From a virus (lineage: Duplodnaviria > Heunggongvirae > Uroviricota > Caudoviricetes): DNA of 47,650 nucleotides. Below, one piece after another: positions 405 through 40,820 of this stretch; the stretch's first letter is position 1, and each line of letters opens with the position of its first letter. The stretch lies in the IMG/VR virus record IMGVR_UViG_2541047798_000009; one strand, written 5' to 3'. Made by a program: the position numbers and the translations under genes. The notes beneath the pieces are model-generated. The model did not search any database and was not told the origin of the DNA. It saw only the letters and a list, made by a program, of their open reading frames with translations.

Positions 405-448
405 GTCCCATACATGCCCCATAGATGCCCCATAGATGCCCCATAGGC
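405..448. repeat. Four tandem copies of an 11-bp unit (GCCCCATAGAT, two perfect, two degenerate)
   Basis: Direct reading: gtcccatacat / gccccatagat / gccccatagat / gccccataggc immediately upstream of the dinI-like promoter; the period is about one helical turn. Confidence 0.8.
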
Positions 449-30800: not shown

Positions 30801-31398
30801 GAATCCTCCCGGCCGGGATAATATTGTGAGTAAAATAAGGAGCGGGCTGAAGTCCGGAAGTTACAGGACAATGGCAGAAGAGAGACGACAGCCCGCAATT
30901 CGAAAAAGACCGCGCAGTTGCGCAGAGTGATTACTATGGGGTATTATTCGTCAGCTGAAATATTACTTCACGTTTTATTGTTTATTCCTTGCCGCCCGCG
31001 TCTCCCAGCGCGGGCTTTTTTTGTCCATAAGAAAGCCCCTCCGGAGAGGGGCTGGAGAGTGGCGCTATGTGCCATTGCATGATGCCGGGTGCCTCCCGGT
31101 GAGTTCAGCCCGGTGACACTGAACCCGCGTCATTCTCGTTTTGATAATCAGAGATTATACCATCACCAGTCGCCCCTCCGCTCAGGGGGATTCACCATGC
31201 CGTTCTCTTTTAACAAATTCGCCGCTAACAGGACAACATTCCGCTTTCTGAGTTGTGAGGAATTTAACACTTCACACCTGTGTGCATTTTCTACAGGCTG
31301 ATCCCAGCACCACAATACATCGCAGGCAACAGAAGCCAAATGCCCCACCACAGAAAAAACATGCAATTATGATTATTGTTTACTGCAAAGATGTAGAA

Positions 31399-32105: not shown

Positions 32106-32182
32106 TGGACCGCCATCGAGGACTCGAACCCCGCGCAGCCAGCTTCGAAGGCTGGCGCTCTATCCCGATGAGCTAATGGCGG
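32106..32182 (-). tRNA. tRNA-Arg (anticodon UCG by hand folding)
   Basis: Hand-folded cloverleaf: 7-bp acceptor, D-arm GCTC/GAGC, anticodon stem CCAGC/GCTGG with loop CTTCGAA, T-arm CGGGG-TTCGAGT-CCTCG, CCA encoded. Confidence 0.7.
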
Positions 32183-32191
32183 TATGTGATA

Positions 32192-32267
32192 TGGTGGCCC
32201 TTGCTGGATTTGAACCAGCGACCTGGCGATTATGAGTCGCTCGCTCTCACCACTGAGCTAAAGGGCC
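32192..32267 (-). tRNA. tRNA-Ile2 (anticodon CAU, ileX/ileZ-like)
   Basis: Sequence GGCCCTTTAGCTCAGTGGTGAGAGCGAGCGACTCATAATCGCCAGGTCGCTGGTTCAAATCCAGCAAGGGCCACCA is very close to E. coli ileX as recalled; anticodon loop CTCATAA. Confidence 0.8.
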
Positions 32268-32646: not shown

Positions 32647-33096
32647 AAAAACCCGCTCGACGGCGGGTTTAAGCTGTGTGACGAAGTAACCACTCTTAAC
32701 AGCATAACCAATTTTTTACGTACGTAAACTACTAAATGATATTTGTGAGAATGCCACCGAGTGTTCAAAACACCACCACAAATACATAAGAAAACCTCAA
32801 CAAATAACCAATGAATAATTTCCGATGTTATTTTTAGGTTGTTTAAATTAAGCCAAAAAATTATAGGGCGCTTATAAATAAGTGTCATTAATATAAATTA
32901 GCTAATAGATTTATTTTTGTTCAAACAAGAGCCATGAATAGGATTAGATAGAAAAGGTTCAGATAAAAATAGAGATCTACGTCACAAATTAAATGAGAAA
33001 CTAAAACTTACATCTTGAAATAATCACATTGATTAGATGAATATTTATCGCGCAGTGACATCATTTTTTTATAATAGTTCAAAAAAAGGGCGTACA

Positions 33097-34179
33097 ATGA
33101 AAAAATTAACAGTGGCAATTTCTGCTGTAGCTGCATCAGTACTGATGGCGATGTCTGCTCAGGCAGCTGAAATTTATAATAAAGACAGTAACAAGCTGGA
33201 TCTATACGGGAAAGTTAATGCCAAGCACTACTTCTCCTCTAATGATGCAGATGATGGTGATACTACTTATGCTCGTCTTGGCTTCAAAGGTGAAACCCAA
33301 ATCAACGATCAACTGACTGGTTTCGGTCAGTGGGAATATGACTTCAAAGGCAACCGTGCTGAATCTCAAGGTTCTTCCAAAGACAAAACCCGTCTTGCAT
33401 TTGCAGGCCTGAAATTTGGTGATTACGGCTCAATCGATTACGGTCGTAACTACGGTGTAGCATACGACATCGGTGCGTGGACTGACGTTCTGCCAGAATT
33501 CGGTGGTGATACCTGGACCCAGACAGATGTGTTCATGACTGGCCGCACTACTGGTGTTGCAACTTATCGTAACAACGACTTCTTTGGTCTGGTCGATGGC
33601 CTGAACTTTGCTGCTCAGTATCAGGGTAAAAATGACCGCACTGACGTAACTGAAGCCAATGGTGATGGTTTCGGTTTCTCCACTACTTATGAGTATGAAG
33701 GATTCGGCGTGGGTGCAACCTATGCTAAATCAGATCGCACTGACGGTCAGGTCGCCTATGGTAAGAGCAAATTCAATGCCTCCGGCAAAAATGCGGAAGT
33801 ATGGGCTGCAGGCCTGAAATATGATGCGAACAATATCTATCTGGCTACCACATATTCTGAAACTCAGAATATGACCGTTTTTGGTAATAACCATATTGCA
33901 AACAAAGCACAAAACTTTGAAGCAGTAGCACAATATCAGTTTGACTTCGGTCTGCGCCCATCTGTTGCTTACCTTCAGTCAAAAGGTAAAGACCTTGGTG
34001 TTCATGGTGACCGAGACTTAGTCAAGTATGTCGATGTCGGTGCTACTTACTACTTTAATAAAAACATGTCCACTTTTGTTGATTACAAAATCAACTTAAT
34101 TGACGATAGTAAGTTTACCAAAACAGCTGGTATTGATACCGACGACATCGTCGCTGTAGGTCTGGTTTATCAGTTCTAA
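33097..34179 (+). CDS. Outer-membrane porin (OmpC/OmpF/NmpC/Lc family, 361 aa)
   Basis: Signal peptide [23 protein letters not shown] then [23 protein letters not shown]... and C-terminal ...[11 protein letters not shown]-rich promoter region upstream; antisense to late transcription as nmpC is in DLP12. Confidence 0.9.
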
Positions 34180-34760: not shown

Positions 34761-35608
34761 TCACCAACCAGATTGAGAATGACCGCTGCACCGTCGTCTT
34801 CCATGCATTCACCCTTACCACTTGCCAGAAACCAGCGGCACGCCTCCACGGCTTCAGCGCGTGTCACCGGTTTGATGGTTGCCAGCAATTTTTCAAGGTA
34901 GCGCTCCCGGTCATATACCGATTCGTGATGCTCAGAGTAACCAAACTCATCGCCCTGTTCTTTAGTTGCAGTGTGGCGAACACTGTAGAGCCAGTCCCAG
35001 TAAACGAACTCGCGAACAACATCAGACAGCGTATAAGGCTCAGGCAGCACATCGCGATATCCATCAACAAATGCCCGACGCTGTTCATCAATTTCGGTCA
35101 TGCGGCTGCCGCCAATGCTTCCGGCTTTTTTCTCTGCCGCAGTCCAGCCCCAGAGATGATCGTTGATAAATTTCTGGGAAGACCTGATGACCCGCTCTGC
35201 TTCCACATCTTCGAGCGCTGCTTCATAGCTACCAAACATAGCCCTGACTGATGCCGCTTTTTTGATGTTCTCCCGGGCGTTCCTGATAACCTGCGCAGGG
35301 TTATCCATGCCGATGATGCCGAACGCAACCTGGAAAGGTTCGTAACCATTCGCCAGCAGATAACGCGAATAGCGTTCCTGAGCCTCTTTTGGGGAAATTT
35401 TAATTTTCACCAGCGCAGCCTCAGCAGCATCCAGATGTGCGGGTTCGTTCAGACGGATAACCTCCAGCACCCAAAGATAAGCATCAGTCTGCTTATGCCC
35501 GGTGATTCTCCGTTGCTCTGGCAGGGGCTTGATGTTTGCGAGGGCGGAGCTGTACGCTGCCGTCGGGATGGTGAATAGTGCTTTATGTTCGTTATTATCA
35601 GTACGCAT
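34751..35608 (-). CDS. Hypothetical protein (285 aa) in the nin-equivalent region upstream of Q
   Basis: Long ORF coupled to neighbouring genes; no domain recognised. Confidence 0.5.
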
Positions 35609-36576
35609 TACGCAACCGCCTTTTTCTTATGGAAAACCAGCTCTCGAACCTGATCACCGTTCATGAGCATATTGTTGAAATCATCGTGATCCGGCCAGTA
35701 CACGCTCACGCGCTGCAGGTCATTCTTTGCCATCAGATTGGCATGAGCACATTCGCAAGCCGCAGCCAGCCCGGTGGCGCTGTTCTCGTCACGGTCGGCA
35801 AAAATAATCAGGTGCAGAACACCAGCTGGTACGCGAAACTTTTTCATAAAGCCGCTGTTAATGGTTGCCCAGGTGTTCACGTTATAAATCTGGTGCGCTG
35901 ACAGCGCTGTTTCGATGCCTTCGGCGATACCCAGAGTGCTGGCGACAGGAAACATGCGGATAGCTACAGAACGAGCGTGATCCAAATAGTTATCTTCCTG
36001 CAGGGATTTGAGGCGCTTTGCACTGCTACCGATATCTGCTTTTTTATCACCATCAAGCAGAGTCTGGTGCAGATAGCACAACTCCCCTTTATCGTCCGTA
36101 GCAAGTGAATAAAGAGACTGGAACACACTCCCGTTGTGTCTCTGCCTGGCATTGAACCGGATCGCCTCAGCAGGAAGACTGAATATTCCACGAGAATTAA
36201 GATACGCTGCGCCGGATGTACCACGCAGTGCCTCCAGTTTTGAAAACTTGCTCAATACCCGTTTGCGTAAGCTGGTGGCGCTGCTGGTTACCGGGATTTT
36301 AACCCGTTGGTAATCATTACCGATCAGGCGGTCTATTTCGGTACAAATCTCGTTAAATGGCTTCGCCTGTGTCAGGGTGACAAGTTTCATACCATCGCCA
36401 CTACCACATACACAGATCCACGTTCCTGCACCGTCGCGGTCGTCAATTCGGAACTTGCCACGTGCACCGCATACCGGGCATTCACCCTTGAAGTGATTTT
36501 TTCCGGTTATCGGCGGCAGACCGAAGTGCTCTAATATTTCAGGCCAGCGGCCTTTCGCTGCATCTGCTGTTTTCAT
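35608..36576 (-). CDS. DNA primase (zinc-ribbon plus Toprim domain, 322 aa)
   Basis: CPVCGARGKFRIDDRDGAGTWICVCG zinc ribbon; Toprim motifs GIAEGIETALS and LIIFADRDENSATG. Confidence 0.8.
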   Translation of the reverse strand: MKTADAAKGRWPEILEHFGLPPITGKNHFKGECPVCGARGKFRIDDRDGAGTWICVCGSGDGMKLVTLTQAKPFNEICTEIDRLIGNDYQRVKIPVTSSATSLRKRVLSKFSKLEALRGTSGAAYLNSRGIFSLPAEAIRFNARQRHNGSVFQSLYSLATDDKGELCYLHQTLLDGDKKADIGSSAKRLKSLQEDNYLDHARSVAIRMFPVASTLGIAEGIETALSAHQIYNVNTWATINSGFMKKFRVPAGVLHLIIFADRDENSATGLAAACECAHANLMAKNDLQRVSVYWPDHDDFNNMLMNGDQVRELVFHKKKAVA

Positions 36577-36577
36577 C

Positions 36578-38236
36578 TTACTGACTCAGACTGTTTATAT
36601 TTTTCTGGAGTTGGTGCTTTGCCTGCATGATGCGCCAGGCCTCACTGCCTGCCGGTATCTCACGTCGTTCATCACGTTCCTGAGATAAATCAATCGTTGT
36701 TTGTGCGTTTTCAGTGACCTTCTGAACCCGCTGGTGGCCTTTGGCAAACCGGATCAGTTTGTGTCTGATGTAGTTATTTACCTCAGGGGTAATTTCCATC
36801 GGAAAGTTACTCAGTCCGTCAGGCCACTCACCGAACTTTTCCCGGAAAGTGTGAGCACACCATCCGTCACTGACTGGACGCCCCAGCGAAGCACGCTGGC
36901 GCTGATAAAATTTGATCTGACTCCACCAGGACTGTTTCTCTGCCTTCGTCGACTGATGCTGATTTTTACCCAGCTTATTAAGTTTGCGGCTAGTGTCAGT
37001 ATCAACGTCTTCACCTCGCAGCGGCTTGTGTCCACATTTCGGGCAAACATAGACGCCTGCTGGCTTCATGTAGTGGCATTGAGGGCATTCATGTGGCAGT
37101 TTTTCGGCCCGTTCCTCAACTGCCCGGCGCGCGCTTTCCTCCATGCCGTCAGACTTACCGGGAAGCTCGTCGTACTCGATTGAATCCGGATAACCCAAAC
37201 GGTGCACGGTGCCGCTGTGATCGAAGATAAGGCAGGACTCTTTACCCGGTGCGGTGCGCAGCCCACGCCCGAGAGCCTGCAACCAGCGAATTTCGCTTTT
37301 TGTTGGCCTGGCGTAGATGATGCAACGAACGTCACTATCAAAGCCGGCCACCAGAACGCCCACACTAACGATGATTTTCGTTGCACCGGTTTCAAAGCGG
37401 TGAATGATGGTCTGGCGCTCATCTACCGGAGTGTCGGCGGTCATTACCTCAGCGTTAACACCCGCCAGGTTAAACTGGATTGTCAGATAATTGGCGTGAG
37501 CTACGTTGACGCAGAAAGCGATGGTAGGTAAATCCCGACCATTCTCCAGCCAGTTCTGTACGATGTCGCCCACCAGCGTAGAGCCGCACATGATTTCAGC
37601 CAGCTGTGTTTCGTTGTAATCGCGGCCGTACTCAAGCGAAGATGTGGTTTTAACACCTTTCAGATCCGGCTTAGTTGGCGCGTAAAATTCGTATTTACTC
37701 AGATCGCCACGCTGGATTAACTCGCCGATGGTGGTCGGCTTAATCAGTCGGTCATAGTATTTGCCCAGGAACGGAGAAAACGGAGTACCCGACAGGCCAA
37801 TCACCTTTACGCCTTTGCCGCGCAGACGTTCGATATCCTTCAGGATGCGTTTTTTACGCAGGTGCGCTTCGTCGATAATCAGCAGATCGATATTTTCAGG
37901 AAAAACACGACGAATAAGCGTGTCAGCGCTGGCAATCTGAATTTTCCGGTCCGGATCGTAGTTCGGGTGATCCGCCCAGATATAACCGATTTCATCTCCA
38001 GGTAAACCATACTGCACGAACCGATTAGCCGTCTGACCAATCAGGATGGTGTACGGAACACAGAACAGAACACGCATACCACGGCTGACAAAACCAGCAA
38101 CTATGAAGGCTGCCAGACCCGTTTTACCGCTACCTGTTGGCGAATACACCATGAAGGTGTCGTTTGCCTTCCAGTCACGGCGCAACATGTTTAACGCTCG
38201 TTCCTGTGCAAAATTCGGCGTGATCGTCAGCTCCAT
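36578..38236 (-). CDS. SF2 (DEAD/DEAH-box) DNA helicase with C-terminal zinc ribbon (552 aa)
   Basis: Walker A YSPTGSGKTG, DEAH box LLIIDEAH, SGTP motif, and CPQCHYMKPAGVYVCPKCGH. Confidence 0.85.
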   Translation of the reverse strand: MELTITPNFAQERALNMLRRDWKANDTFMVYSPTGSGKTGLAAFIVAGFVSRGMRVLFCVPYTILIGQTANRFVQYGLPGDEIGYIWADHPNYDPDRKIQIASADTLIRRVFPENIDLLIIDEAHLRKKRILKDIERLRGKGVKVIGLSGTPFSPFLGKYYDRLIKPTTIGELIQRGDLSKYEFYAPTKPDLKGVKTTSSLEYGRDYNETQLAEIMCGSTLVGDIVQNWLENGRDLPTIAFCVNVAHANYLTIQFNLAGVNAEVMTADTPVDERQTIIHRFETGATKIIVSVGVLVAGFDSDVRCIIYARPTKSEIRWLQALGRGLRTAPGKESCLIFDHSGTVHRLGYPDSIEYDELPGKSDGMEESARRAVEERAEKLPHECPQCHYMKPAGVYVCPKCGHKPLRGEDVDTDTSRKLNKLGKNQHQSTKAEKQSWWSQIKFYQRQRASLGRPVSDGWCAHTFREKFGEWPDGLSNFPMEITPEVNNYIRHKLIRFAKGHQRVQKVTENAQTTIDLSQERDERREIPAGSEAWRIMQAKHQLQKNINSLSQ

Positions 38237-38649
38237 TGTGCAGCTCCCGTGCTGATGAGATAATAATTTTGTGATGTGGTTTTCATGGATTCCCCCTCAC
38301 ATGGCTGGTGGCCTCCCCAAAGGCTGCCAGCCTCCCTTCTGATTCAGCTCCTCTGAAAAATCACTCTTCCAGGAAGAACCCTTTTCGTTTCTCAGCGCCT
38401 GAGCGCTTTGTACTACCTTGCTGATACGGGCGTTTTTTTAAATTGCGCCCTTAAGACAGTGATCTACTTAACCAATGGATCTCTCCTGTTGGAAAAGACC
38501 CTATTCCTGCCCCAACACCCAATCCCCCCTTACCCCCCTTACCCTCTTCCCCATAAAAACGTACTACTTCCCTAGTACACATGAGGAGTTGGGTCAGTTG
38601 GTTGCCAACCTGAACAGGCACCTTTAAGCCTGCTTCTGTTCGGGTACCT

Positions 38650-38958
38650 TTAAACCCGAAACAATGAGGAGCGCGATTGCGTTCCTGCCAGGGGCGGCTG
38701 AGTTGTATACCCCTGTAAAGCTCTGCCCTGATTTCTCACAAACAAGCGGAGCCTTGTGTTTGCTTCGTGCCTTGCTCTGTTCTCCTTGCGGAATGAAACA
38801 GGCTCAGCGTCAAAAGTGATTTCGTATACCTCCGCATATTTCAGGGCGACCTTCCGTCTCAGTGACGGAGGCAGCCCCTGTAACTGCTGCTGAATCCACT
38901 CTTCGTCTGCCTGGCAGTACCTAGCTGGCATTTCAACCCTGACTAAATCCTGTTGCAT
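38650..38958 (-). CDS. Hypothetical protein (102 aa); C-terminal 20 aa run into the C-rich intergenic region and may not be native
   Basis: ORF from the track; the first ~80 aa look protein-like, the tail is low-complexity. Confidence 0.35.
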   Translation of the reverse strand: MQQDLVRVEMPARYCQADEEWIQQQLQGLPPSLRRKVALKYAEVYEITFDAEPVSFRKENRARHEANTRLRLFVRNQGRALQGYTTQPPLAGTQSRSSLFRV

Positions 38959-38961
38959 GGC

Positions 38962-39081
38962 TTACTCTTCCCGCTTCGCTATGAGGTTATAAACCCCGCT
39001 GATCGGGTCATACCATATGCTGCGTGGCAGCAGCTTCTGGAAGTAGCGCGGATCTGGCATTACGGTTGACTGTTGTGACAT
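38962..39081 (-). CDS. Small ORF (39 aa) coupled to the cro-like gene
   Basis: ATG sits 4 nt after an AGGTG that overlaps the cro-like stop; the start lies inside a 12-bp perfect palindrome GTGACATGTCAC. Confidence 0.3.
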   Translation of the reverse strand: MSQQSTVMPDPRYFQKLLPRSIWYDPISGVYNLIAKREE

Positions 39082-39088
39082 GTCACAC

Positions 39089-39289
39089 CTAACTATTTGT
39101 TTTCCGTAATGGAGAAAAAATGAGGCTCTCTTTAGATAATTTGAGGGTTGGTGAAACTTTAGATACCGCTTCCTCAATTCTTTCAGCCATTGCAACTGAG
39201 GGGCGCCTAAAACCCAGAGCCATCTGGTTCAGGTATGCAACGCTAGTCCCAGATAACTGTGCCAGCCGCCTCCATTCATCCGCGCTCAT
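39089..39289 (-). CDS. Cro-like HTH regulator (about 66 aa; alternative starts at 39322 or 39334)
   Basis: MSADEWRRLAQLSGTSVAYLNQMALGFRRPSVAMAERIEEA is a Cro/YdaS-type HTH; divergent from the repressor gene across operator palindromes. Confidence 0.6.
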   Translation of the reverse strand: MSADEWRRLAQLSGTSVAYLNQMALGFRRPSVAMAERIEEAVSKVSPTLKLSKESLIFSPLRKTNS

Positions 39290-39344
39290 GACTCCTCTGA
39301 TTGAGAGCAATACACTGGACATAAAAAACCCCATACTGTATTGG

Positions 39345-39416
39345 TTATTAGCAACGTGCTAACATTAGCACATGAGATCACAATACAGCAATACGCTGTA
39401 AAGCATTTAGCTAACA
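39345..39416. promoter_or_regulatory. O_R-like operator region with TTAGCA/TGCTAA half-sites
   Basis: 15-bp perfect palindrome TTAGCAacgTGCTAA (39348-39362), a TTAGCA half-site (39365-39370) and palindrome TTAGCTAA (39407-39414) between the divergent regulators. Confidence 0.55.
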
Positions 39417-39427
39417 ATGAGACAAGC

Positions 39428-39883
39428 ATGGAAATCAAAGATATTCGCTTAAAAAATCTACAGACGGTAATCCAACGCAGCGGCTTAACCCAGACAGATC
39501 TGGCGTTAAAATGTGAGATATCACCCTCACTTATAAGCCAAATAATGACTAAGCGCAGAAATATGGGAACTGCTCTCGCTAGAAAACTCGAGGGGCGACT
39601 GAGCCTATCAGAAGGATGGTTTGACATCCCCCACTCATTGCTGGATTCCCCATGGCATCTAGCTAAAATGAGGGAAAAGACTGGTGAGACCACTATTGAT
39701 GAACAGCAACTAACTAAAAGAGAGACTCGACTTATTGAGTTATTCAGACAAATGCCTGAAAGCGAAAAAGACAGGATAATCAGTGAGTTATCTGAAAAGA
39801 AACGTAATTTTGACAAACTACTTGATGAGCTAATGGCTGTTAAAGCATCAAGAATGCCGATCGACAAAGACGAAAATGAATAA
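39428..39883 (+). CDS. CI-like repressor with N-terminal HTH and no LexA-type S24 peptidase domain (151 aa)
   Basis: HTH LKNLQTVIQRSGLTQTDLALKCEISPSLISQIMTKRRNMGTALARKLE; C-terminal half is coiled-coil-like with no Ala-Gly/Ser-Lys autocleavage motifs; the track start 39341 is a TTG inside the operators. Confidence 0.6.
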   Translation: MEIKDIRLKNLQTVIQRSGLTQTDLALKCEISPSLISQIMTKRRNMGTALARKLEGRLSLSEGWFDIPHSLLDSPWHLAKMREKTGETTIDEQQLTKRETRLIELFRQMPESEKDRIISELSEKKRNFDKLLDELMAVKASRMPIDKDENE

Positions 39884-39917
39884 TAAATACAACGCACTAT
39901 AAAAAAAACAGCAAATA

Positions 39918-39989
39918 TTAGCATTTTGCTATTGTCAAGAATAACGCATAGCGCTACATTCACCTCAGCAAGTAAAAACAAGTGAGGTG
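39918..39989 (+). promoter_or_regulatory. P_L-like promoter with operator palindrome TAGCAtttTGCTA and an RBS-sequestering hairpin
   Basis: Palindrome at 39919-39931 matching the O_R motif; -35 TTGTCA (39932-39937), -10 TACATT (39955-39960); inverted repeat CACCTCA (39961-39967) / TGAGGTG (39983-39989) whose right arm contains the GAGGTG Shine-Dalgarno. Confidence 0.45.
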
Positions 39990-39995
39990 AATGTA

Positions 39996-40439
39996 ATGTT
40001 AAATGATAAACATGACTCTTATTCCGTAAACTCTCTGTTGATTTGTGCTCAAGCGGCACTATTAGGCGGTACCGCTTCAAACCATGACGTCATCAACCTC
40101 TTAGATGTTGCACAAGACATCATCTCTTCAACTATGAATTCCTTTACAGATAGTAGCGCTCCCGGCGCTAATGTTGATTTATTTACCAAAGAAGTTAGCG
40201 CTAGTAATTCCCCAGCATTATCTTTCGGTCAACGTATTCTCCAAGCGCGTAAATCAGCAAGTCTTCAACAACATCATATTGCCAGCGGTGCTGGAGTGAC
40301 TGTTCAGGCTGTTTCGTTATGGGAAAATGACTCAGCAATTCCTACTTGCGACAAAATTATCCCATTGGCAAATCTTCTTGGCTGCGATCCAATGTGGTTA
40401 CTGACTGGTGCTTATAAACAAAATCAGGAGGAAGCATAA
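39996..40439 (+). CDS. Hypothetical protein with C-terminal XRE-type HTH (147 aa) at the N-gene position
   Basis: C-terminal SFGQRILQARKSASLQQHHIASGAGVTVQAVSLWENDSAIPTCDKIIPLANLLGCDPMWLL is an HTH_XRE pattern; ATG 6 nt after GAGGTG. Confidence 0.55.
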   Translation: MLNDKHDSYSVNSLLICAQAALLGGTASNHDVINLLDVAQDIISSTMNSFTDSSAPGANVDLFTKEVSASNSPALSFGQRILQARKSASLQQHHIASGAGVTVQAVSLWENDSAIPTCDKIIPLANLLGCDPMWLLTGAYKQNQEEA

Positions 40440-40440
40440 G

Positions 40441-40632
40441 ATGAAAATGTTCAAAGGCCTCACCAACGAACCGGAAACAGCTTTTCATCACATTGCCGTA
40501 CTGCTTGAAGCGGGGTTAATCATTTCGGCTTCCGGTGATGAAGAATGTGATGAACTTTCGGATGATATCTTTTTACTGGCACAACAATACGCCAGAAGCG
40601 CATGCGATGCATTTAAGGAGCAAAGAACATGA
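40441..40632 (+). CDS. Hypothetical small acidic protein (63 aa)
   Basis: ATG 2 nt after the previous stop, AGGAGG upstream. Confidence 0.45.
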   Translation: MKMFKGLTNEPETAFHHIAVLLEAGLIISASGDEECDELSDDIFLLAQQYARSACDAFKEQRT

Positions 40633-40820
40633 TAACTCCATTAAATATTCTTGAGGAAGTGGCAGCACAAATAAAAGAGAATACATCCATGCTTGAATTT
40701 ATATTTAAGAATTCGCCTGATTCAGGAGAGACAGACGATTATTTATGTTGCCTCATTCGCTCCATGAATAAAACCTGTGAAATGGCTTACGCGTATATCG
40801 ACACACTGCGCAACGAATAA
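40629..40820 (+). CDS. Hypothetical small protein (63 aa)
   Basis: Start overlaps the previous stop by 4 nt (ATGA). Confidence 0.45.
   Translation: MITPLNILEEVAAQIKENTSMLEFIFKNSPDSGETDDYLCCLIRSMNKTCEMAYAYIDTLRNE

Follow-up and report, generated by a model that had tools for sequence, protein, structure and literature searches.

Introduction

In some Shiga-toxin (Stx) phages, the replication genes O and P of phage lambda are replaced by Eru1, an 'EHEC phage replication unit' (EHEC, enterohaemorrhagic Escherichia coli) for which the Stx2 phage TL-2011c is the prototype, and passages of the two reports on these units link such phages with highly virulent EHEC and with less stable lysogeny (Llarena et al., 2021, PMC8044961; Fagerlund et al., 2022, PMC8951638). 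Many enterobacterial prophages, Stx phages among them, have an Eru1-type module in place of lambda O/P. The module is medically relevant and barely characterised: the passages of the two reports returned by a term search mention no origin, no non-coding element and no route of helicase or primase recruitment for it. Here we analyse a module of this type in an E. coli lambdoid prophage, the 47,650-nt stretch of DNA of IMG/VR record IMGVR_UViG_2541047798_000009 (hereafter, the window), and in particular the 413-nt non-coding gap (38237-38649), transcribed on the minus strand, that separates a 102-aa gene from the helicase gene of the module. By sequence comparison, the gap is a strongly conserved non-coding cis-acting control region of the Eru1-type replication module, and we tentatively put forward its G-rich core (38455-38556) as a candidate transcription-activated, R-loop/G-quadruplex-type replication origin.

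Several described replication systems involve RNA-DNA hybrids. In the plasmid ColE1, pairing of an rG stretch with the dC template is essential for the persistent hybrid at the origin (PMC4412123). At the T4 origins oriF and oriG, and at the mitochondrial origin OriH, R-loops or hybrid G-quadruplex structures are found (PMC4412123, PMC5027508), and at mitochondrial conserved sequence block II (CSB II), a G tract in the non-template strand gives rise to a hybrid G-quadruplex of nascent RNA and DNA that influences genome replication (PMC5027508, PMC4412123). The element that we describe matches no Rfam family and was found in no paper by our literature searches.

Results and discussion

The gap contains a core under strong purifying selection

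More than 100 distinct copies of the gap occur in IMG/VR. Over its whole length, the gap is 84-100% identical among more than 100 distinct sequences, which represent at least eight genera of enterobacteria (Escherichia, Yersinia, Cronobacter, Enterobacter, Salmonella, Citrobacter, Trabulsiella and Pseudocitrobacter, among others). The gap carries no annotation anywhere. To locate the conservation within the gap, pairwise identities were taken from 18 sequences, namely the window and 17 relatives that were retrieved independently of the G-rich core. Mean pairwise identity is 94.5% for the core (38455-38556), 92.3% for a downstream segment that comprises a hairpin and a leader open reading frame (ORF; 38336-38237), 86.5% for the first 600 nt of the helicase gene and 68% for helicase third codon positions; that is, the core, of ~100 nt, evolves ~6-fold more slowly than helicase synonymous sites. 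These identities indicate that the core is under strong purifying selection.

The same comparison bears on the explanation that the gap is compositional noise or a degenerating spacer without function. The absence of annotation is all that speaks for that explanation; the difference between the core and the neighbouring synonymous sites, together with a fixed-spacing motif in 10 divergent lineages and 167 distinct sequences (see below), makes it exceedingly improbable. The signal that the initial annotation had picked out in this gap is thus far beyond chance, which is excluded as the explanation.

The core contains a G-tract array with a canonical quadruplex motif

The plus strand of the gap had been described as C-rich, with direct repeats and with minus-strand G runs of a quadruplex-forming pattern, and all three descriptions are borne out. 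The gap is 30.8% C and 18.9% G (GC skew -0.24), as compared with 28.5% C and 23.4% G for the whole window, and the C bias peaks at 38498-38553, where there are 33 C and 1 G in 56 nt. The direct repeats are two copies of CCCCCCTTA and a degenerate third copy (38522-38551), with a period of 9 nt. The G runs are real and are more numerous than first listed: the minus strand from 38552 to 38499 reads GGGG-AAGA-GGG-TAA-GGGGGG-TAA-GGGGGG-ATT-GGG-TGTT-GGGG-CA-GG-AATA-GGG. This G-tract array (38499-38552, minus strand) includes twin G6 runs, at 38538-38533 and 38529-38524, in the same 9-nt period. In the second half of the core (38455-38498, minus strand), the array is followed by CTTTTCCAA (38497-38489), by GATC at 38481-38478 and 38464-38461, and by a TAGATCACTGT box (38466-38456).

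The quadruplex potential is that of a canonical G-quadruplex (G4) motif (at least four runs of at least three G, with loops of 1-7 nt), represented by GGGGAAGAGGGTAAGGGGGGTAAGGGGGG at 38524-38552 on the minus strand, with more runs downstream. This motif is the strongest in the window: the 50-nt G4Hunter score is 2.06 on the minus strand (-2.06 on the plus strand), the next-best score in 47.6 kb is 1.26, and only 0.08% of the 50-nt stretches of the window score 1.5 or more. ViennaRNA predicts a G4 in the core RNA, with a folding energy that goes from -19.6 to -29.6 kcal/mol once quadruplexes are allowed. The window has one other canonical G4-type motif, three tandem copies of the 11-nt GGGGCATCTAT at 407-442 (minus strand).

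Several sequences differ by one base in the length of a G run (G6 vs. G7), and it follows that no ORF extends across the array on either strand. We accordingly rejected, as frameshifted by these 1-nt polymorphisms, plus-strand ORFs at 38408-38575 and 38475-38627, a minus-strand ORF at 38451-38621, and two small coding sequences annotated in phage Fostie.

A two-box element with fixed spacing accompanies the module in divergent lineages

A helicase profile scan returned close relatives only; a scan seeded with the Pectobacterium helicase reached other lineages. In Morganella, Pectobacterium, Symbiopectobacterium and a Salmonella lineage, with 65-69% helicase identity, the DNA upstream of the helicase gene has no BLAST similarity to the gap, and direct reading of that DNA after the PHROG 852-like gene reveals, in each, the layout seen in the window: a T run, then an array of G tracts in which WAA separates two G5-6 runs, and then a GATC-containing box. 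A Klebsiella lineage carries the full element, and Fels-1, phi467 and TL-2011c carry a reduced one (in TL-2011c, GGGGGTAAGGGGG ... GGTTAGGTAGATCACTGT, after an unannotated PHROG 852-like ORF).

We surveyed 145 distinct helicase-anchored upstream regions, which form 10 sequence clusters, over 700 nt. Twin G5+ tracts are present in 8 of the 10 clusters; the other two are the Fels-1/phi467-type cluster, with its reduced G array, and cluster L174, in which the best-scoring stretch is at the outermost edge of these 700 nt. In every case it is the helicase-sense, non-template strand that is G-rich: G4Hunter maxima on the sense strand are 0.96-2.34 in 9 of the 10 clusters, and the antisense values are -0.28 to -0.46. 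The motif YTTWCCAR, together with GATC, occurs in 134 of 144 upstream regions.

A search with the pattern GGGGGWAAGGGGG-N50-75-GATCWSTG yielded 167 distinct two-box elements, down to 65% helicase identity and in 10 divergent upstream lineages, Fels-1 and TL-2011c among them. The second box is TAGATCWCTGT. The spacing between boxes is 60-64 nt in 162 of the 167 elements (80 at 60-61 nt and 80 at 63-64 nt), corresponding to ~six helical turns, and the spacer sequence differs among clusters. A helicase gene lies downstream of 161 elements (three further contigs are too short to tell), and a PHROG 852 gene lies upstream of 160. The narrower pattern GGGGGWAAGGGGG-N60-64-GATCWSTG would serve as a cheap marker of the module in prophage annotation.

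The distance from element to helicase ranges from 49 to 662 nt, because an extra ORF can separate the two: the 122-aa STM0899 in Fels-1 (L005:3113-3481), gp29 in TL-2011c (L145:5164-5541) or a 91-aa ORF in L024 (2730-3005). The element keeps its place despite an inserted ORF, and its role thus does not depend on the helicase ribosome-binding site (RBS). Each inserted ORF overlaps or abuts the helicase start, and the site resembles a gene-insertion hotspot.

Three clusters have, within the core, a perfect N5-GAA-N5' hairpin with covarying stems (AGCCC, AGTGC and AGCGC). This hairpin lies between the G tracts and a CTTTWCCA motif in L005, L006, L024, L299 and their relatives; the cluster of the window is without it. 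Two versions of the hairpin contain GCGAAGC, which, as d(GCGAAGC), we take to be a very stable DNA mini-hairpin.

Two sequences carry the element or its array in another setting. In L336 (3504-4581), the order is a cI-like repressor gene, the element, the Toprim primase gene directly, and a Q-like gene, and no helicase or PHROG 852 gene is detected in the ~1.5 kb downstream or the ~3.5 kb upstream; the module of L336 may be a reduced one, or one of a satellite-like kind. In L314 (655-1340), which is an unrelated context, there is a homologous G array (GGGG-AGA-GGGGG-TAA-GGGGG-TGT-GGGG) with flanking GTGAC..GTCAC inverted repeats, followed by a TTGACA/TATAAT-like region and AT-rich TAGTATA-type repeats; 4.8 copies of a 30-bp tandem repeat lie ~430 nt downstream. 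The L314 region resembles the origin or control region of a different type of phage.

Two boxes ~six helical turns apart, one of which contains a conserved GATC, could instead form a duplex-DNA platform to which a transcription regulator binds, such as a Dam-sensitive internal promoter or operator of the replication genes, and not an origin. The good promoter-like TTGACA...TATAAT region beside the homologous array of L314 would fit such a platform, as would two palindromes in the gap, GGTTGGCAACC and TTCTTCCTGGAAGAG, that resemble operators. However, a promoter and terminator scan of 37900-40800 finds no sigma-70-like promoter on either strand of 38237-38649, binding to duplex DNA would not require the strict strand asymmetry of the G tracts, and the element follows the replication module and not the highly variable immunity and regulatory genes. 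We consider a duplex-DNA platform improbable.

The core is a candidate transcription-activated replication origin

The initial annotation had left three options for the gap: a replication origin, a structured leader that controls helicase translation, or an unannotated RNA element. A selected, functional non-coding element and a conserved leader ORF both emerge from the analysis, and among the options it is the origin that gains most support. We favour it because the G-tract/GATC-box core is conserved across all module lineages, because the internal spacing of the core is fixed, because the core stays with the module despite an extra ORF before the helicase, and because there are no iterons elsewhere in the replication genes. 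On the last point, the helicase, primase and third genes of the module contain no direct repeats of at least 14 nt, and the helicase and primase genes contain no iteron-like repeats; hence they offer no competing origin candidate. The gap is itself not an iteron-type origin, its sole repeat being the 9-nt CCCCCCTTA unit in two to three copies. The core thus acts like an independent cis element that belongs to the replication module, and an origin is further favoured by the position of the element directly before the primase gene in L336, by the covarying N5-GAA-N5' hairpin of three lineages, by the strength of the G4 motif and by the relation of the helicase to structure-specific helicases. 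That the core is an origin of R-loop/G4 type remains a tentative assignment, to which we would give somewhat less than an even chance.

From the anatomy, conservation and linkage of the core we infer how hybrid formation, helicase entry and initiation might proceed. Early rightward transcription from the immunity region would cross the core; gene orientation implies read-through from the early-right promoter, with a weak terminator-like hairpin and U5 just upstream of the array. The non-template strand is G-rich in all lineages examined, such that rG can pair with the dC template, and the displaced G-rich DNA strand could then fold as a G-quadruplex. The resulting branched or single-stranded structure would be the entry site for the RadD/PriA-like helicase and the Toprim primase, without iteron-driven melting, and the downstream box, about six helical turns off, would provide a second contact for a module protein.

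Several observations weigh against an origin of this type. The core has short A-rich patches and no clear AT-rich unwinding element. The cores of Fels-1 type and TL-2011c type have too few G3+ runs for a three-tetrad G4, which implies that the conserved feature is the twin oligo-G tracts and not a G4 as such. In several lineages, the terminator-like hairpin and U run before the array would lower transcription into the array. Two flanking hairpins show a bias for G.U over A.C, and at least part of the region is therefore selected as minus-sense RNA. The module has a primase of its own and would not need an RNA primer. Finally, the copy number of GATC varies from 1 to 4, and GATC may be a plain part of the motif and not a Dam target.

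The core resembles the ColE1 origin in that two G6 runs lie on the transcript strand over template C6, and neither system has iterons. There is no sequence similarity to ColE1, there is no RNA I/RNA II antisense control here, and ColE1 uses RNase H, Pol I and PriA, whereas the present module has its own helicase and primase and a predicted hybrid. The T4 origins consist of a promoter and a downstream element that holds a persistent R-loop; the present element has no dedicated promoter beside it, and it is G-rich, whereas the T4 elements are AT-rich. In CSB II/OriH the U run follows the G tracts, whereas here it precedes them. As with the lambda ori (inside O) and the P4 ori/crr, the element lies in or beside replication genes of a temperate enterobacterial phage, and the primase domain of the module is P4-alpha-like; however, there are here no 17-22-bp iterons and no long AT-rich block, but a 9-nt G6 unit present two to three times.

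A more general form of this proposal is that Eru1-type phages as a group start replication at an iteron-free, transcription-dependent origin, at which a twin oligo-G R-loop/G4 is recognised by a RadD/PriA-like helicase and a Toprim primase. We regard this generalisation as rather doubtful. It would cover the Stx2 phages of the 2006 O103:H25 and 2011 O104:H4 outbreaks and, if true, would give bacterial viruses a counterpart to the mechanisms of ColE1 and of mitochondrial CSB II and would couple amplification of the phage genome, hence the dosage of toxin genes, directly to the activity of the early promoter. The ~100-nt two-box core, with its fixed spacing, is in any case a small and concrete origin candidate for the module; if confirmed, a G-tract/R-loop origin would represent a mode of initiation that, as far as our literature searches found, is undescribed for temperate phages, and also a rare selected G-quadruplex-type motif in enterobacterial DNA.

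Flanking hairpins carry signs of selection as RNA

The remainder of the gap contains a series of hairpins and palindromes. At its upstream end, hairpin H1 (38641-38658, minus strand; CGGGU-UUAAAGGU-ACCCG; -9.5 kcal/mol) holds the stop codon of the 102-aa gene in its loop, and hairpin H2 (38614-38633, minus strand; (G)CAGGC-UUAAAGGU-GCCUG(U); -10.8 kcal/mol) follows 26 nt downstream with an identical 8-nt loop. In H1, 99% of cells are paired, and minor variants are G.U in 10 cases vs. A.C in 2, which fits a minus-sense RNA; its loop motif is retained in Fels-1 and in a Klebsiella lineage. H2 shows one compensatory change, C-G to U-A, in ENT39118. A weak plus-strand hairpin call at 38615-38632 is H2 read on the opposite strand.

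Between H2 and the array lie the 11-bp near-palindrome GGTTGGCAACC (38600-38610), which was read from the sequence and which most members of the close group share in large part, and the weak terminator-like hairpin (38555-38579, minus strand), which reads UGUACUA-N6-UAGUACG and then U5. The latter has a conserved 7-bp stem, a variable loop and a segment energy of -7.1 kcal/mol; because just 2 of its pairs are G-C, the terminator scan made no call there, and the U run is missing in Fels-1.

Downstream of the core, a hairpin with a 13-nt A-rich loop, GGGCG-(loop)-CGCCC (38428-38450, minus strand; -8.1 kcal/mol), has an outer pair distributed as G-C 52, G.U 34 and A-U 12, and its minor cells are G.U in 45 cases vs. 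A.C in 4. It is followed by the near-palindrome TTCTTCCTGGAAGAG (38364-38378), which continues into GTGA and U5 (38356-38378, minus strand). This segment is almost invariant in the close group and lies roughly 30-130 nt upstream of the helicase start; TTCTTCCTGGAAGAG is retained in the Klebsiella lineage of 73% helicase identity (L387:3463-3477), and in Fels-1 the segment is replaced by the inserted ORF. TTCTTCCTGGAAGAG may be a protein-binding site. The last structure, the stable hairpin I (38303-38332, minus strand; GGCUGG..CCAGCC; -19.4 kcal/mol), lies directly 5' of the RBS of the leader ORF and is conserved in Fels-1 and phi467. The Chi sequence GCTGGTGG lies inside hairpin I on the plus strand (38304-38311); it is found in ~80 of 104 related sequences, the remainder having GCTGGCGG or GCTGGCAG.

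These structures count in favour of an alternative at the RNA level, in which the gap is a structured intercistronic leader of the early-right operon that sets helicase and primase output. With its hairpins and with a composition rich in G and poor in C, the leader would protect 400 nt of untranslated RNA from Rho and RNases; the core would set transcript stability, processing or read-through of the weak terminator, either as the binding site of a protein (the 102-aa product, perhaps, or a host factor) or as an RNA G4. In keeping with such a leader, the predicted folding of the entire gap is better than that of shuffled controls (z = -4.0); H1 and the A-loop hairpin accept G.U and not A.C, and the G-C/G.U/A-U series is that expected of sense-RNA selection; the G-rich strand is always the transcript strand; the predicted RNA G4 is 10 kcal/mol more stable than the alternative fold; a terminator-like hairpin and U run stand ahead of the core; and the leader ORF and hairpin I are clearly RNA-level features.

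The core itself fits an RNA leader less well. What is kept family-wide is a set of short motifs at fixed spacing, with no conserved pairing scheme, and the 10-bp hairpin GGGUCUUUUC/GGAGAGAUCC predicted in the window is not retained in other lineages; as much as ~660 nt, with a complete ORF, can separate the core from the helicase start; and no Rfam match is obtained even at E < 10 (in Rfam 15, none in the region at the gathering threshold, and only noise, E of at least 3, in a sensitive scan with E up to 10). Support from covariation is thin, most pairs being invariant, and is inflated by related sequences; several helices defined by eye, among them a 'CUCAG' hairpin and the palindrome, were mis-registered and were discarded from the covariation analysis. 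We judge an RNA-level leader unlikely as the account of the region, though less so than any other alternative to an origin. The readings are not mutually exclusive.

Two hairpin-plus-U-run features, at 38579-38555 and 38378-38356, bound a conserved block of ~190 nt, which raises the further alternative of a separate small RNA (sRNA), a G-rich sponge or regulator with its own promoter and terminator. Prophages often carry sRNAs, and STnc100 is encoded elsewhere in the window. Against an sRNA, there is no promoter-like site upstream of the block, Fels-1 has an ORF in place of the downstream hairpin and U run, no Rfam family corresponds to the block, and the boundaries of the element vary by lineage, the core alone being kept. 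We regard a separate sRNA as quite improbable, more so than a duplex-DNA platform.

Three further kinds of RNA were considered and rejected. An OOP-like antisense RNA was dropped because there is no plus-strand promoter and because the G.U bias favours the minus sense. A nut site consists of a conserved boxA (CGCTCTTA-like) and, a few nt downstream, a short stem capped by a GNRA-like pentaloop; a lambda-type nut site was rejected because relatives do not conserve the boxA-like CGCTCCTCA that lies upstream of H1 and because the loops of H1 and H2 are 8 nt. An HK022 put-like RNA was rejected because the hairpins are too small for put.

The last ~110 nt of the gap probably act in translation

The 19-codon ORF reported in the initial annotation, MKTTSQNYYLISTGAAQWS, lies at 38286-38227 on the minus strand (ATG 38286-38284, TGA 38229-38227). 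Its predicted RBS is present, a Shine-Dalgarno (SD) sequence GAGGGGGA at 38298-38291, 5 nt upstream of the ATG, and its overlap with the helicase ATG (38236-38234), given before as about 10 nt, is exactly 10 nt; SD and ORF together occupy 38227-38298 (minus strand). In 100 of 104 distinct sequences, the ORF has 19 codons, starts with ATG or GTG and ends in the same overlap. The remaining four are two 18-codon versions, one cut to 12 codons, and one, in L088, in which a natural 26-nt deletion (window 38279-38254) fuses the leader in frame with the helicase and gives the helicase a 10-residue N-terminal extension. The commonest leader polymorphisms fall 3/3/7 at codon positions 1/2/3, that is, are enriched at third positions.

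With a strong SD, a conserved start, frame and length, and a stop codon that overlaps the next start by 10 nt, the leader resembles known short upstream ORFs that couple translation to the gene that follows. It differs in that the helicase gene also has a GGGAG SD-like sequence of its own and in that coupling here is predicted. Only the close group and the Fels-1 group have the 19-codon leader; in sister lineages, the helicase start is overlapped likewise by a longer ORF (gp29 in TL-2011c, the 91-aa ORF in L024).

Judging from these features, the leader ORF probably couples translation into the helicase gene. The last ~110 nt would thus have a job separate from that of the core: the stable hairpin, the strong SD and the 19-codon ORF would restart translation after a long untranslated stretch, and the leader ORF would feed ribosomes into the overlapping helicase start. 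The earlier suggestion that a structured leader controls helicase translation fits only these ~110 nt (hairpin, SD and ORF); it does not suit the G-rich core, whose distance from the helicase ATG can reach ~660 nt. Whatever the role of the core, the proximal 110 nt very probably act in translation.

The gap lies in the early-right operon of a lambdoid prophage

The 601 bases around the gap match E. coli VR50 and other human isolates at 100% identity, and phages Fostie, YP3 and ENT39118 (Hendrixvirinae) at 86-90%. The early-right operon, on the minus strand, has the order cro-like helix-turn-helix (HTH) ORF, 102-aa gene, 413-nt gap, helicase, primase, 285-aa gene and antiterminator QuuD. The cro-like ORF (39089-39334, minus strand; 81 aa) has a weak HTH_3 match (E = 5e-4) and the position expected of cro; it is without annotation in the identical RefSeq record of E. 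coli VR50. The 102-aa gene (38650-38958, minus strand; PHROG 852) lies directly upstream of the gap. Its product has only a sub-threshold Pfam match, to Sld7_C, and no NCBIfam match; its AlphaFold model is a three-helix fold of low confidence (pLDDT, predicted local distance difference test, 61.5), for which Foldseek finds no structure in PDB with E < 2.5.

The helicase (36578-38236, minus strand; 552 aa) is an Eru1A-like superfamily 2 (SF2) DEAD/DEAH enzyme with a RadD-like core and a C-terminal zinc ribbon. It has the Pfam domains ResIII, DEAD and Helicase_C, is 67% identical to Eru1A of TL-2011c, and has its best NCBIfam similarity to RadD, with weak matches to PriA and RecG; these matches place it among relatives of structure-specific SF2 enzymes, in the RadD/PriA/RecG neighbourhood. 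The Eru1B-like Toprim primase (35608-36576, minus strand; 322 aa) has a zinc ribbon and a P4-alpha-type primase domain (Pfam Zn_Ribbon_Prim, DUF7146 and Toprim_3).

As in the Eru1 unit of TL-2011c, an SF2 helicase gene is followed by a Toprim primase gene downstream of cI/cro, in place of lambda O/P. The third gene encodes a 285-aa PHROG 6204 protein with no Pfam match, whereas that of TL-2011c is eru1C (DUF1367/NinB-like), and the module of the window is therefore a variant of the Eru1 unit. A further difference is that in TL-2011c the 125-aa gp29 overlaps the helicase start in place of the 19-codon ORF.

A search for small plasmids carrying only this module returned just 37-40-kb phage-like Klebsiella 'plasmids' and very distant cyanobacterial helicases. 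NZ_CP083847.1, NZ_CP076549.1 and similar non-mobilizable 'plasmids' of 37-43 kb, from Enterobacter and Klebsiella, are whole phage genomes with the module; these records could be excised prophages or phage-plasmids.

In the VR50 record, a frameshifted DUF6645 gene and a truncated methyltransferase gene lie nearby, and the prophage may therefore be partly degraded. Between the Q gene and the late region of the window lie the STnc100 sRNA (158 bits), tRNA genes and an OmpC-like porin gene, features located at 31023-31229 (minus strand), 32109-32267 (minus strand) and about 33037-34179 (plus strand).

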